Of a DNA stretch of 5,124 nucleotides, positions 1 through 5,124 are shown piece by piece (position 1 is the stretch's first letter; the number at the start of each line of letters is the position of its first letter). The translations under genes and the position numbers were made by a program. The stretch is from a virus (taxonomy: Duplodnaviria > Heunggongvirae > Uroviricota > Caudoviricetes), in the IMG/VR virus record IMGVR_UViG_2695420708_000002; one strand, 5' to 3'. Below the pieces are notes generated by a model. That model made no database searches. It worked only from the letters and a program-made list of their open reading frames with translations, and was not told the origin of the DNA.

Positions 1-34
1 CCTCAAAAACACCATCATACACTAAATCAGTAAG

Positions 35-63
35 TTGGCAGCATCACCAAAATTGGTTATGCT
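35..63 (+). promoter_or_regulatory. Candidate sigma70 promoter, possibly a late (pR'-like) promoter
   Basis: TTGGCA at 35-40, 17-nt spacer, TATGCT at 58-63, upstream of a terminator hairpin and the lysis cassette. Read by eye only; no scoring matrix applied. Confidence 0.25.
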
Positions 64-93
64 GTTAAGAGTGGTTACTTCGTCACACAGCTT

Positions 94-126
94 AAACCCG
101 CCGTCGAGCGGGTTTTTCCATTTTTT
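94..126 (+). terminator. Rho-independent terminator (tR'-like) upstream of the holin gene
   Basis: Stem AAACCCGC (94-101) / GCGGGTTT (108-115) with 6-nt loop, followed by TTTTT-CCA-TTTTTT. The position before S matches lambdoid late-operon organisation where Q antitermination acts. Confidence 0.5.
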
Positions 127-238
127 GAGTCTCGATATTAGCTGATAACCCAATACCTGAGTTATTCACTGACTCCGAGTCTGTTACGTTTCGTAGTATT
201 CCCTCAATTTACACCCGCTTTGTCTGCGAGGTGGGGTT

Positions 239-454
239 ATGAAATCCATGGATAAGTTAACAACGGGTGTCGCCTATGGCACCTCAGCAGGTAGTGCCGG
301 GTACTGGTTTTTACAGCTGCTAGATAAAGTCACGCCCTCACAGTGGGCGGCAATTGGAGTGCTGGGTAGCCTGGTATTTGGCCTGCTGACGTACCTGACA
401 AACCTTTATTTCAAGATTAAAGAAGATAAGCGCAAGGCTGCGAGAGGTGGATAA
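239..454 (+). CDS. S: Class II holin, phage 21 S-type pinholin/antiholin (71 aa; internal start at 248 gives the 68-aa form)
   Basis: 71-aa ORF beginning MKSMDK (dual-start motif, Met1 and Met4), two hydrophobic segments, charged C-terminal tail; SD GAGGTG at 228-233. Strong resemblance to remembered phage 21 S21 / E. coli essD. Stop TAA overlaps the endolysin ATG (TAATG at 452-456). Confidence 0.9.
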
Positions 455-951
455 TGCCTCCATCATTACGAAAAGCTGTTGCTGCTGCTATTGGTGGCGG
501 GGCTATTGCTATAGCATCTGTGTTAATCACTGGCCCAGGTGGTAACGATGGTCTGGAAGGTGTGAGACATAATCCTTACAAAGACATAGTTGGTGTATGG
601 ACTGTATGTTACGGGCATACAGGAAAAGACATCATTCCCGGTAAAACGTATACCGAAGCAGAGTGCAAAGCCCTCCTGAATAAAGACCTTGCCACTGTCG
701 CCAGACAAATTAACCCGTACATCAAAGTCGATATACCGGAAACAACGCGCTGCGCTCTTTACTCGTTCGTCTACAACGTGGGTGCTGGCAATTTCAGAAC
801 ATCGACGCTTCTTCGCAAAATAAACCAGGGTGATATTAAAGGCGCATGTGATCAGCTACGGCGCTGGACATACGCTGGCGGTAATCAATGGAAAGGACTG
901 ATGACTCGCCGTGAGATTGAGCGTGAAGTCTGTTTGTGGGGGAAACAATGA
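454..951 (+). CDS. R: SAR endolysin (lysozyme, T4 lysozyme-like glycoside hydrolase family 24), phage 21 R-type
   Basis: 165 aa; N-terminal Gly/Ala-rich signal-anchor-release segment [20 protein letters not shown]; catalytic E35/D44/T50 in GLEGV...YKDIVGVWT; near-identical to remembered R21 / rrrD. Stop TGA overlaps the Rz ATG (ATGA at 948-951). Confidence 0.92.
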
Positions 952-1406
952 GCAGAGTAACCGCGATTATCTCCGCTCTGGTTATCTGCATCATCGTCTG
1001 CCTGTCATTGGCTGTTAATCATTACCGTGATAACGCAATCGCCTACAAAGAGCAGCGCGATAACAAGGCCAGTGAACTGGAGAAGGCGAACGCCACCATC
1101 GCTGACATGCGGAAGCGTCAACGTGATGTAGCAGAACTCGACGCAAGATACATAAAGGAGCTTGCTGATGCTAACGCGACTATCGAAAGTCTCCGTGCTG
1201 ATGTTTCTGCTGGGCGTAAGCGCCTGCAAGTCGCCGCCACCTGTGCAAAGTCAACGACCGGAGCCAGCGGCATGGGCGATGGAGAAAGCCCAGGACTTAC
1301 AGCAGATGCTGAACTCAATTATTACCGTCTCCGAAGTGGAATCGACAAGATAACCGCGCAGGTTAACTACCTGCAGGAATACATCAGGACGCAATGCCTG
1401 AAATAA
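948..1406 (+). CDS. Rz: Rz inner-membrane spanin (i-spanin)
   Basis: ATG at 948 preceded by GGGGGA; N-terminal TMD ([20 protein letters not shown]) then a coiled-coil-like charged periplasmic domain; sits directly after the endolysin. The track ORF begins at an upstream in-frame GTG (936); ATG 948 is preferred. Confidence 0.85.
1168..1353 (+). CDS. Rz1: Rz1 outer-membrane lipoprotein spanin (o-spanin), embedded in the +1 frame of Rz
   Basis: ATG at 1168 with SD AAGGAG (1155-1160) and 7-nt spacer inside Rz coding sequence; signal peptide [20 protein letters not shown] with lipobox-like VSAC; Pro-rich mature part ([16 protein letters not shown]). The track ORF starts 6 nt earlier at TTG 1162. 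Confidence 0.8.
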
Positions 1407-1438
1407 TTTTTTTGCAAATCACAAAGTCCATTTAATGA

Positions 1439-1460
1439 GCCTCGCGATGCGGGGCTTTTT
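1439..1460 (+). terminator. Rho-independent terminator after the lysis cassette
   Basis: GCCTCGC (1439-1445) / GCGGGGC (1449-1455), one G-U pair, 3-nt loop, then TTTTT (1456-1460). Confidence 0.45.
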
Positions 1461-1607
1461 GCAATAAATGCGTACCGCAACGCATGTTTTTTACACCGAA
1501 CCTGCCCCTTTGGAATGGGCCTTTGAGGATACCAGTTAGTGCTGGCGAGCCTCGGTGGGCTGGTTTCCTGTGCGGCAAAGGTTCATTTCAAAGAGTAGGT
1601 ACACGCT

Positions 1608-2105
1608 ATGAAATCATTAACCCTCTTCAATCAACCAATTCGTATCGGTGAAGATGGCATGATCTGCCTCACTGATATGTGGAAAGCCAGTGGTAAAAGT
1701 GAATCTGAATCGCCTTACCACTACCTGCGAAACAAGCAGACCAAAGAGTTCTTAGCCGAGCTGGAGAAAAACCACGAATCTGTGGTTTTTACTGAGCGCG
1801 GTGTACACGGTGGAACATATGGCGGGAAGTTTGTTGCTTACGATTATGCGGCTTGGTTAAACCCCGGGTTCAAGTACGCGGCCTATAAAGTCCTCGATGA
1901 CTACTTCACCGGAGAACTTCAGCATCGCAACAGCTTAAGTGCGCAGCTCAACATGAAATGTCATGAATTTGACCAGAAGAAAGACATGGCGAGCTTCTGC
2001 GGACAAGGGCTGGCAGCATGGCGCTATACGAAGCCAGTGTTGGTCGCTGAGATTAACTCCCTGGCTAACCAGCTGCAGATTACGATCCCCGGGCTTCCGG
2101 GATGA
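1608..2105 (+). CDS. KilA-N domain-containing phage protein (putative DNA-binding / antirepressor-like), 165 aa
   Basis: The N-terminal ~100 aa follow the remembered KilA-N pattern (IRIGEDGMICLTDMWKASGK ... LRNKQTKEFLAELE ... GGTYGG ... AYDYAAWLNPGFKYAAYKVL). Family assignment is from memory, not a profile search. Stop TGA overlaps the next ATG (ATGA at 2102-2105). Confidence 0.6.
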   Translation: MKSLTLFNQPIRIGEDGMICLTDMWKASGKSESESPYHYLRNKQTKEFLAELEKNHESVVFTERGVHGGTYGGKFVAYDYAAWLNPGFKYAAYKVLDDYFTGELQHRNSLSAQLNMKCHEFDQKKDMASFCGQGLAAWRYTKPVLVAEINSLANQLQITIPGLPG

Positions 2106-2359
2106 GTGATCATGTTATTGAATGCGCCTCCAGAGCGGGGCGCGACTTCTCAGAGTTCATGAAAGGCGAGAAGGGCATGATGGAAGCATTGGCCTCGGTG
2201 GATGAGTTTGGCGAGCAGCTGCGCCTCAACGGCTGTGTCAATCATCACTTTGTTAGCTACATGATGCGGAACTCGATCATGCAGGCATTCATGGACATGG
2301 CAAAAGCCGAGAGGAAAGAAGAGCGCCGGCGTAAGCGAGCGGAAGCAAAAGCGAAGTAG
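2102..2359 (+). CDS. Hypothetical small protein (85 aa), Met-rich with a basic Lys/Arg C-terminal tail; translationally coupled to the KilA-N gene
   Basis: ATGA start/stop overlap with the upstream gene; C8, C45, H48, H49 could form a metal site; C-terminus KAERKEERRRKRAEAKAK. No recognisable family. Confidence 0.5.
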   Translation: MSDHVIECASRAGRDFSEFMKGEKGMMEALASVDEFGEQLRLNGCVNHHFVSYMMRNSIMQAFMDMAKAERKEERRRKRAEAKAK

Positions 2360-2367
2360 CCATTACA

Positions 2368-2389
2368 AAGCCCATTTACGGGTGGGCTT
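2368..2389. other. Hairpin just downstream of the 85-aa gene (possible terminator or RNA structure)
   Basis: AAGCCCA (2368-2374) / TGGGCTT (2383-2389) with 8-nt loop, preceded by CATTACAAAG; no strong T-run follows, so terminator function is uncertain. Confidence 0.3.
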
Positions 2390-2656
2390 GATAATGAAAC
2401 CGGAATTTATTCTGGGCCACCAGTTAACGGCAGTACCACGAAACAACCCAAGCCAGTAAGTGGGGAAATAACACCGGCAGCCACTGAAAGATGAACCTCC
2501 TGCCTTATGGCAAAAAAGATTCTTTGTGGTGGCGGACTGATGGAAAGACATCCCAATTTCAGCCAAACATTGAAGGAGTTGTTATGTCAGCAGAAGGTTT
2601 CAATAACCCATCAAAATTCCGGGATGAGTGGGATAGCAGCGTAAAGAGTAAGTGAT

Positions 2657-2784
2657 GCCATCACAAAAGCCATTCCCTACAGAGTGGCTTTGATAATGGC
2701 TTATACCCTACACGGGATAACTTAACTGATATCCCTTTTAAAGGATAAAGGTATTCAAGCCTGACACATCATGCGCTGTATCGT
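2657..2784 (+). repeat. Copy 1 of a 128-bp direct repeat; ends exactly at the IS2 left terminus
   Basis: Matches 3621-3748 with about 4 mismatches by eye. Contains an imperfect hairpin (AAAGCCA...TGGCTTT, 2665-2695) and the sequence GATAATGGCTTATACCCTACACGGGATAACTTAACTGATATCCC. Confidence 0.8.
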
Positions 2785-3057
2785 TAGACTGGCCCCCTGA
2801 ATCTCCAGACAACCAGTATCACTTAAATAAGTGATAGTCTTAATACTAGTTTTTAGACTAGTCATTGGAGTACAGATGATTGATGTCTTAGGGCCGGAGA
2901 AACGCAGACGGCGTACCACACAGGAAAAGATCGCAATTGTTCAGCAGAGCTTTGAACCGGGGATGACGGTCTCCCTCGTTGCCCGGCAACATGGTGTAGC
3001 AGCCAGCCAGTTATTTCTCTGGCGTAAGCAATACCAGGAAGGAAGTCTTACTGCTGT
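2785..3057 (+). mobile_element. IS2 (IS3 family) remnant: left terminal inverted repeat plus the 5' part of orfA; the rest of the element is deleted
   Basis: Starts TAGACTGGCCCCCTGAATCTCCAGACAACC..., matching the remembered IS2 left end; continues into insC coding sequence; similarity stops abruptly after CTGCTGT at 3057 (IS2 is about 1.3 kb when complete). Confidence 0.85.
2876..3057 (+). pseudogene. insC: Truncated IS2 transposase orfA (InsC), N-terminal ~60 codons only
   Basis: [61 protein letters not shown] matches the remembered InsC N-terminus (HTH region). After 3057 the reading runs into unrelated Rz-derived sequence and stops at 3085. Confidence 0.8.
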
Positions 3058-3420
3058 AAGCGCGACAAAAACGCAAGAGAACTGAAGCTGGCGAACGCAA
3101 CCATTACTGACATGCAGCAGCGCCAGCGTGATGCTGATGCACTCGATGCTAAATACACGAAGGAGTTAGCTGATGCGAAAGCTGAAAATGATGCTCTTCG
3201 GCGCAAGCTTGATAATGGTGGTCGGGTGCTCGTCAAAGGAAAATGCCCTGTGCCATCCTCAGCCGAAACCTCCAGCGCCTCCGGCATGGGCAATGATGCC
3301 ACCGTCGAACTCTCTCCAGTTGCTGGACGAAACGTTCTCGGTATCCGGGACGGAATTATCCGCGACCAAACAGCACTGAGAACGCTTCAGGAATACATCA
3401 GGACGCAATGCCTTCGATGA
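3058..3420 (+). pseudogene. Rz: Second Rz (lambda-type i-spanin), 5'-truncated at the IS2 junction; N-terminal TMD missing
   Basis: In-frame translation from 3058 gives [51 protein letters not shown]..., close to remembered lambda Rz from about residue 37 on; C-terminus [11 protein letters not shown] parallels the first Rz ([11 protein letters not shown]). No start codon or TMD remains. Confidence 0.8.
3173..3379 (+). CDS. Rz1: Second Rz1 (lambda-type o-spanin lipoprotein), apparently intact, embedded in the truncated Rz
   Basis: ATG 3173 with SD AAGGAG (3160-3165) and 7-nt spacer; [21 protein letters not shown]... with lipobox VVGC; Pro-rich [11 protein letters not shown]; resembles remembered lambda Rz1. 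Likely non-functional in lysis without its Rz partner. Confidence 0.7.
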
Positions 3421-3594
3421 TAGCGATAATTTTACTCATCATCCTTCACATCTGGCTCTGTAGACAGGGTGGTGCTCACTTCTGGAGTGAATCCAGATTA
3501 AACATCTCATTGCTGATGCTTGATATTGAGCATTTTGCGCGCGGTAAGGGGCTGCGTTGAGATAAGAGCCAGTCATTACAAATACCAGGATTTA

Positions 3595-3617
3595 GCCTCG
3601 CATTCGCGGGGCTTTTT
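3595..3617 (+). terminator. Rho-independent terminator downstream of the second Rz/Rz1
   Basis: GCCTCGC (3595-3601) / GCGGGGC (3606-3612), loop ATTC, then TTTTT (3613-3617); same stem sequence as the terminator at 1439-1460. Confidence 0.45.
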
Positions 3618-3620
3618 ATT

Positions 3621-3748
3621 GCCATTACAAAAGCCACTTCCTACAGAGTGGCTTTGATAATGGCTTATACCCTACACGGGATAACTTAACTGATATCCCT
3701 TTTAACGGATAAAGGTATTCAAGCCTGACACATCATGCGCTGTATCGT
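3621..3748 (+). repeat. Copy 2 of the 128-bp direct repeat; uninterrupted, continues into unique sequence
   Basis: Matches 2657-2784 with about 4 mismatches by eye; begins right after the terminator T-tract. Confidence 0.8.
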
Positions 3749-4017
3749 CGCCGTATTCCCGTATTAACCATGACCGTAGCCCGACGGGGAACTCCTTCTG
3801 CGCGAGTGTGCGGGAATAATCAAAAACGATGCACACCGGGTTTTTACCGCGTTTATGGTTCGCGGGTTTGTCCCTCATGCTCGCCAGTCCTGTGCGGGGG
3901 TGGAAGAAACAGGACACTTACACTGATTCTTGTGGGTACGATGCTATTCCTTTCTGGATTATCCCGATGTCATTCATGCAGGGCGCTGTATCAGACGTTC
4001 GTCATGGCTGTCAGGCT

Positions 4018-4132
4018 GACGGGTCCTCCCGGTGGGGTGGCCTGCCACGGGGCGGGAGCGGCGCGGAAAAAGGCTAGTTTTTGAAATTTCATTCGTCATC
4101 ACCACTACTGTAATGGATTGATATTACAGTGG
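4018..4132 (+). promoter_or_regulatory. Candidate cos site: cosQ/cosN-like segment (cosN about 4050-4061) and start of cosB with an IHF-like site
   Basis: GACGGGTCCTCCCGGTG...CCACG GGGCGGGAGCGG CGCGG resembles the remembered lambda right-end/cosN junction, lying 186 bp before the small terminase ATG (about 190 bp in lambda). IHF-like TAATGGATTGATA (4111-4123) sits inside a 10-bp inverted repeat (4105-4114 / 4123-4132); AT-rich tract 4131-4180. Confidence 0.4.
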
Positions 4133-4235
4133 TTTTATTTTTATGGTGTCGATTTTGATTGTTTTTTGTTCATCACTAACACCGTTTGCCTAAAGTTGTT
4201 CGCAAGATGCATGTTTAAAACATTCTGGAGCGGGT

Positions 4236-4730
4236 ATGGATCGAGAGTTAAAAAATCTGACGCTGAATATCAGTCAACTGGCGGCACTGTCAGGTGTACA
4301 TCGCCAGACTGCTGCGGCAAGGCTGCAAAATCTACCCGTTGCAGGGGGGCATGAAAGCAACCTCAAGCTTTATCGGGTGGTTGATATTGTGTCGGCATTT
4401 CTGGCATTACCACCGCCGGTTGCAGAAGGCGAAATGGACGCGCATGAGCGCAAAGCCTGGTATCAGTCTGAACGTGAGCGTCTTAAGTTCGAACAGGAAA
4501 CGGCACAACTCATTCCGGCCAGTGATGTCAGACGGGAGTTTGCCATCTGGGCAAAAGCGGTCGTGCAGGTGCTGGAGACATTACCGGATATTCTTGAACG
4601 TGACTGCGGTCTGCAGCCTGCCGCTGTGAGCCGTGTTCAGTCCATTATTGATGATCTGCGCGATCAGATAGCCCTGCGGGTGACTGAAGCAGGTGCGGAT
4701 GATGAGGAGGAATTACAGCAGGAGGAGTAA
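4236..4730 (+). CDS. Terminase small subunit (Nu1-like, putative), 164 aa
   Basis: First gene after the cos-like site; SD GGAG at 4227-4230; N-terminal HTH-like NISQLAALSGVHRQTAAARL; acidic tail DDEEELQQEE; stop overlaps the next ATG (TAATG at 4728-4732). Function inferred from position and architecture, not from recognised sequence identity. Confidence 0.55.
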   Translation: MDRELKNLTLNISQLAALSGVHRQTAAARLQNLPVAGGHESNLKLYRVVDIVSAFLALPPPVAEGEMDAHERKAWYQSERERLKFEQETAQLIPASDVRREFAIWAKAVVQVLETLPDILERDCGLQPAAVSRVQSIIDDLRDQIALRVTEAGADDEEELQQEE

Positions 4731-5095
4731 TGCTGAATCAGGAAACCGCAAAGGCAGCACGAACCGATTCAGGTTATATCCTTCGCGCACCGAGACGAAT
4801 GCGGGTTGCTGATGCCGTTGCTCAGTATATGCGGGTGCCCATGGGGGCAGGGAACTCAGTCCCGTGGGATCCGCTGGTGGCACCGTATGTTATTGAGCCG
4901 ATGAACTGCCTGGCCTCGCGTGAATACGACGCAGTGATATTTGTTGGCCCGGCACGAACCGGCAAGACTATCGGCCTGATTGACGGCTGGGTGATTTACA
5001 ACGTGATTTGCGATCCTGCTGATATGCTGATTATTCAGATGACGGAGGAAAAAGCCCGCGAACACTCCAAAAAACGACTCGCCAGAATGAGGTAG
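4730..5095 (+). CDS. Terminase large subunit (GpA-like ATPase), N-terminal 121 codons ending at an in-frame TAG; possible pseudogene
   Basis: Walker A P-loop VGPARTGKT at the position expected for GpA-family terminases; translationally coupled to the small subunit. The ORF stops at TAG 5093-5095, far short of the ~640 aa expected; the same frame stays open to the window end. Confidence 0.55.
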   Translation: MLNQETAKAARTDSGYILRAPRRMRVADAVAQYMRVPMGAGNSVPWDPLVAPYVIEPMNCLASREYDAVIFVGPARTGKTIGLIDGWVIYNVICDPADMLIIQMTEEKAREHSKKRLARMR

Positions 5096-5124
5096 CCTGA
5101 GTTTAACGGACACTCCTTCCTGAA

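Follow-up and report, generated by a model that had tools for sequence, protein, structure and literature searches.

Does the large terminase gene (terL) at the right-hand end of this phage record stop at a nonsense mutation, or has terminase sequence already given way to other DNA before the stop codon is reached? The window, that is, the whole stretch of 5,124 nucleotides analysed here, carries on its plus strand an open reading frame (ORF; 4730-5095) that starts with ATG, encodes 121 amino acids with the Walker A motif GPARTGKT at residues 73-80, and ends with TAG at 5093-5095, after which the same frame reads PEFNGHSFL up to base 5124. The first-pass annotation had correctly described the Walker A motif, the TAG after 121 codons and the open frame behind it for the interval 4730-5124, and it proposed an amber mutation in a defective prophage as the cause of the early stop, with a sequencing error or a naturally shorter protein family as alternatives. 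The collective evidence presented below supports another cause, to which we assign a probability of about 0.92: a copy of the insertion sequence IS600, together with loss of flanking DNA, cut the terL of a Shigella sonnei lambdoid prophage remnant after nt 358. Coordinates are collected in Table 1.

Table 1. Features of the window and of the corresponding S. sonnei 53G locus (L003, HE616528.1)
Feature	Coordinates	Strand	Description
Left 273 bp of IS2 (TAGACTGGCCCCCTGA...)	2785-3057		InsC/orfA start at 2876; downstream of the 85-aa gene
Rz/Rz1 lysis gene 3' part and small ORFs	3059-4235	+	S. sonnei prophage remnant, 100% identity to 53G
DUF1441 gene, 164 aa, intact	4236-4730	+	Pfam PF07278, E = 2.7e-41
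terL 5' remnant	4730-5087	+	nt 1-358 of 2103-nt gene, aa 1-119 of 700
IS600 (IS3 family) left end, first 37 bases with terminal repeat and leader	5088-5124	+	Identity to IS600 starts
TAG stop of the truncated ORF	5093-5095	+	IS600 positions 6-8; direct reading
S. sonnei 53G IS600 at terL	L003 10359-11622		1264 bp, TGAGGT...ACCTCA
orfA (HTH_Tnp_1) of that IS600	L003 10423-10725
orfB (rve) of that IS600	L003 10761-11579

Results

The reading frame is a terminase gene fragment

The ORF is a true gene fragment and not a chance reading frame. Its product matches the Pfam profile GpA_ATPase at E = 4.5e-22, above the gathering score, with coverage restricted to profile positions 2-80 of 247. Aligned with an intact E. 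coli terL (L001; 2103 nt, 700 aa), the remnant is identical in 358 of 358 nucleotides, with nt 359 as the first mismatch, and in 119 of 119 amino acids at the N-terminus. The DUF1441 gene directly upstream holds the position of a small terminase gene and overlaps the terL start, and it likewise precedes the intact 700-aa terL genes of E. coli prophages. The length of these homologues, 700 aa, speaks against a family that naturally ends after 121 residues.

In the intact protein, GpA_ATPase occupies residues 41-304 (profile 2-247) and GpA_nuclease (PF20454) residues 326-644. The Pfam search of the 121-aa product detects neither a complete ATPase domain (PF05876; Walker B and catalytic segment) nor the C-terminal endonuclease domain PF20454. 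Because Walker A is all that is kept, with Walker B, the catalytic part of the ATPase and the nuclease missing, packaging would be abolished, and the product is predicted to be unable to package DNA.

Homology ends six bases before the stop codon

Used as megablast query against 5,426 complete E. coli genomes, the segment 4600-5124 finds matches in 1,359 of them, with identities of up to 100%, and every match listed ends at window base 5087 (query position 488). The pairwise alignment places the break at the same base: the intact gene continues as ...CTCGCCAGAA CGTTTCGCGTCAGCCCGG... and the window as ...CTCGCCAGAA TGAGGTAGCCTGAGTTTAACGG... Written as triplets, with a slash marking the junction, the intact sequence is ...CGC CAG AAC GTT TCG... 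and that of the window ...CGC CAG AA/T GAG GTA GCC TGA G... The match to intact terL is 100% as far as 5087, a point six bases ahead of the TAG, and is lost altogether from there on. The protein ends differ correspondingly, with ...RLAR-TFRVSPEV in the intact terminase and ...RLAR-MR followed by the stop in the window; codons 120-121 (ATG AGG, Met-Arg) are junction- or IS-encoded.

These observations bear directly on the proposal of an amber point mutation, or of a sequencing error, in an otherwise intact terL. The in-frame TAG downstream of Walker A and the frame staying open to the window end make the proposal understandable, but the departure from terL is an abrupt switch at 5087, upstream of the TAG, rather than a single-base difference, the homology does not resume, and the 37 bases that follow are the end of a multicopy insertion sequence. 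The same frame had been expected to stay open and homologous to GpA farther downstream; in S. sonnei 53G it closes 10 codons after the TAG as PEFNGHSFLK and a stop, one codon past the window end, and terL is missing from the next 10 kb. A random sequencing error is ruled out since the junction recurs in 203 assembly blocks, independently finished chromosomes among them. We consider that this explanation has practically no chance of being correct. The part of the earlier proposal that holds is the defective prophage with a truncated terL; the amber mutation as its cause does not, given that homology is already lost at 5087. Programmed recoding at the TAG was also considered and is rejected, for the sequence identity switches before the stop codon.

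The stop codon is contributed by the left end of IS600

The segment 5088-5124 starts with TGAGGTAGCCTGAG..., identical to the left end of IS600 (TGAGGTAGCCTGAGTTTAACGG...), and it equals the first 37 bases both of the annotated IS600 in E. coli O121 (locus L002) and of the S. sonnei 53G copy. In E. coli O121:H19 the match is located directly before a coding sequence annotated as 'IS3-like element IS600 family transposase', and the alignment of the window to this copy proceeds base for base from TGAGGTAGCC on. The characteristic 5'-TG terminus of IS600 is present in the window. When 5080-5124 is searched alone, it is found at 6,204 places in E. coli genomes, at most 43 per genome, on chromosomes and plasmids, and the matches coincide with genes that have nothing in common, among them an exonuclease gene, pdeB and traI. 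The right end of the element reads ...CCAGTACACCTCA; the ends were defined by alignment to another copy, and the IS600 terminal repeats, which are short and imperfect, are not reported by an inverted-repeat finder.

Each of the three forward frames meets a stop codon (TGA, TAG, TGA) inside the first 13 bases of the left IS600 terminus, TGAGGTAGCCTGA, so that any gene entered in that orientation ends within about 4 codons. In the terL frame the junction reads AGA A/TG AGG TAG.

The target sequences of two copies show a resemblance. The terL target CTCGCCAGAA (window 5079-5087) and the exonuclease gene target of E. coli O121, ATCGCCAGAG (L002 2500-2508), have TCGCCAGA in common immediately before IS600, and this motif is loosely similar to the IS600 right-end sequence TTGCCAGTA. 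It was not found at two other IS600 flanks examined. Its presence before two copies may be a coincidence or a weak target preference.

The locus beyond the window

Window 3059-5124 (2066 bp) matches S. sonnei 53G at L003 8330-10395 without a single difference. In the assembly collection, 203 blocks contain a protein identical to the 121-aa product, seven of them with contigs >1 Mb, S. sonnei 53G being one of the seven, and the junction of terL nt 358 with IS600 is identical in two complete chromosomes (L003 and a second one, L004) and in many independent drafts. The 38-base terL-IS600 junction has no exact match in a species-representative genome collection, and no complete E. coli genome of the 5,426 spans it, the best coverage being 93% and ending at 5087. 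The junction appears to be confined to the Shigella lineage, of which the two collections contain a poor sample.

In 53G the order of elements is terL nt 1-358, IS600, 342 bp of tail-fibre DNA, IS1, DUF4376 and sitDCBA-uspF-ompN-nifJ. The 342 bp after IS600 correspond, at 99% identity, to an internal stretch (~nt 599-940) of a prophage tail-fibre gene 1269 nt long, and GCCGTCTGGCGATACC is the tail-fibre sequence adjoining the IS600 right end. Three draft assemblies (L005-L007) have different DNA after IS600. These are given no weight, because the adjacency in L006 is a scaffold join (N directly after IS600) and the others are without a full-length IS at the expected spacing.

Further IS600 copies lie no more than a few kb upstream of the prophage remnant (L003 7365-7401; L004 3964-4000 and 7830-7867), one of them inverted and immediately ahead of the holin gene. 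Between its lysis genes and DUF1441, L004 also carries an IS21-type element (IstA/IstB) and another IS600. The prophage remnant is an IS hotspot, variable between S. sonnei strains.

The window is a scaffold of two unrelated pieces

The window represents an entire draft record (CXAP01000203.1, assembly GCA_001260795.1; 5124 bp), and the sole difference between the two is position 3058, which is A in the window and N in the record. This position separates the IS2 fragment (2785-3057) from the 3' part of the Rz gene (3059 onward). The window is therefore a short-read scaffold of two unrelated pieces joined at the N and bounded by repeats. It follows from the scaffold join that the ORFs crossing 3058 (2831-3085 on the plus strand, 3048-3302 on the minus strand) are artefacts, as is the apparent second, truncated Rz after IS2; the chimeric ORF 2831-3085, 84 aa with a GTG start, gave no match on protein look-up. 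A search via the KilA-N protein described below retrieved no complete genome with the whole arrangement of the window, as is to be expected for two unrelated pieces.

At the left edge, bases 1-48 match the end of IS1 (GGTGATGCTGCCAACTTACTGATTTAGTGTATGATGGTGTTTTTGAGG in reverse complement) at every position, and in L003 and L004 this terminus lies beside IS1 insA/insB. At the right edge, the window stops 37 bases into IS600 because the short-read contig broke at a multicopy repeat. The left piece (1-3057) is 99.97% identical to CP049175.1 8394-11450 (L018); there the sequence runs on into a full IS2-type transposase gene, and the surrounding lambda-like prophage has intact Nu1/gpA.

Window 239-2359 belongs to a prophage different from that of terL and comprises a P21-type holin, lysozyme and Rz/Rz1; a KilA-N/ORF11CD3 protein (1608-2105) and then an 85-aa protein without Pfam match come after that lysis set. 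The KilA-N protein is very widely distributed, being present in 16,610 collection blocks, and is located between the lysis and terminase modules of packaging types that are not related to one another (Nu1/gpA, DUF1441/700-aa TerL and Terminase_3), thus behaving like a moron.

The composite nature of the record raises the question of an assembly chimera, with an IS600 end misjoined to a terL that is really intact. Short-read scaffolding is documented here by the N at 3058, and IS ends are typical places of misjoining. The same junction is nonetheless present in both complete chromosomes and in the independent drafts, and the join falls on the exact first base of the element, as transposition predicts. 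A misjoin is thus very improbable, if slightly less so than the amber mutation.

The junction lacks a target-site duplication

In L003 and L004 the IS600 at terL is flanked as GAA-IS600-GCC, without a 3-bp target-site duplication. Three other IS600 copies do have such duplications, namely GAG/GAG in the O121 exonuclease gene and, in L004, CCA/CCA and CAC/CAC. The lack of a duplication at terL implies an IS600-associated deletion or recombination, not simple insertion.

Had IS600 simply been inserted, the window strain would still carry the terL 3' part, along with the morphogenesis genes, just beyond the element. The IS600 right end would then be followed by GAA and CGTTTCGCG..., that is, a join to GAACGTTTCGCG, with terL nt 356/359 onward (GAACGTTTCGCGTCAGCC) as the right flank. 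This scenario draws on the fact that the contig ends 37 bases into IS600, leaving the right flank of the window strain outside, and on the copies with 3-bp duplications elsewhere in the same genomes. Against it, the window agrees with 53G at each of its last 2066 positions, and the right flank in 53G and L004 consists of tail-fibre DNA, with no duplication. Moreover, in blast searches with the intact terL against ten loci, nt 1-358 alone matched at the junction, the 10 kb that follow it in the two complete chromosomes contain no further terL, and no retrieved locus has IS600 followed by terL nt 359 onward. Simple insertion is the least improbable of the alternatives, yet still improbable.

Discussion

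Truncation of terL by IS600 with loss of flanking DNA can be set out as a sequence of steps. The element would have entered terL after nt 358; its first base is window 5088. Bases 1-2 of IS600 complete codon 120 (A/TG) and bases 3-8 provide AGG TAG, hence the stop. A deletion adjacent to IS600, or recombination between two IS600 copies, most probably then removed the terL 3' end of 1745 nt, which encodes the nuclease domain in full and the greater part of the ATPase domain; the head and tail genes as far as the tail-fibre gene were presumably lost as well. The breakpoint, the identity of the element and the source of the stop codon are seen directly, and the missing downstream terL and the missing duplication are observed in 53G. 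The window strain, which does not differ from 53G before the contig stops, probably has the same downstream structure, and we infer that insertion came first and deletion or recombination second.

What is left is a dead prophage remnant with its lysis cassette kept. Retention of the DUF1441 gene and the 121-aa TerL fragment as a decoy that poisons the packaging of superinfecting lambdoid phages seems highly doubtful. The N-terminus of lambda gpA is the Nu1-binding region, and a decoy might bind the small terminase or TerL partners of superinfecting phages. The fragment sequence is exactly conserved across many S. sonnei genomes; its persistence is explained equally well by clonal descent as by usefulness.

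IS600 belongs to a set of five insertion sequences that have expanded in every Shigella species, and in S. sonnei about 50% of the pseudogenes result directly from IS insertion (PMC7373316). The case described here is IS-driven prophage decay of a known, ordinary kind, and the junction is already contained in the published S. sonnei 53G genome. Its biological weight is small, as it adds one more IS-made pseudogene, present in hundreds of assemblies, in a decayed Shigella prophage. Its practical importance is one of caution: where a gene stops early within a few bases of a contig end and its frame then stays open for a short distance, the first check should be for the end of an insertion sequence. 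In short-read Shigella drafts, windows frequently begin and finish in such elements, as this one does with IS1 at its left edge and IS600 at its right.

Among known systems, the closest relative of the remnant is the GpA-family large terminase (lambda gpA-like) represented by the 700-aa WP_000934127.1, of which residues 1-119, GPARTGKT included, are 100% identical in the remnant, and with which it has the upstream DUF1441 partner and the overlapping start in common. Compared to that protein, the remnant lacks 581 of 700 residues, a loss that takes in the entire nuclease domain and, of the ATPase profile, positions 81-247. Judged from these features, it is a GpA-family large terminase by descent and a pseudogene, not a functional member of the family. 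The junction, for its part, resembles gene truncations by IS600 in Shigella, enteroinvasive E. coli (EIEC) and Shiga toxin-producing E. coli (STEC): the left end is the same, the stop lies within the terminal repeat, and in 53G the full 1264-bp IS600 with orfA and orfB stands at the terL junction. Unlike plain IS600 insertions, the terL copy is without the 3-bp duplication and represents a deletion or recombination junction.

Cryptic or defective lambdoid prophages of E. coli K-12, such as Rac, DLP12 and Qin, have kept lysis and partial packaging genes after IS-mediated deletions. In the S. sonnei remnant, as in these prophages, a holin-lysozyme-Rz cassette is kept, the packaging module is truncated, morphogenesis genes are lost, and insertion sequences are found at the deletion borders. 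The prophage, the host lineage and the insertion sequence are different, and the likeness drawn here is one of gene layout.
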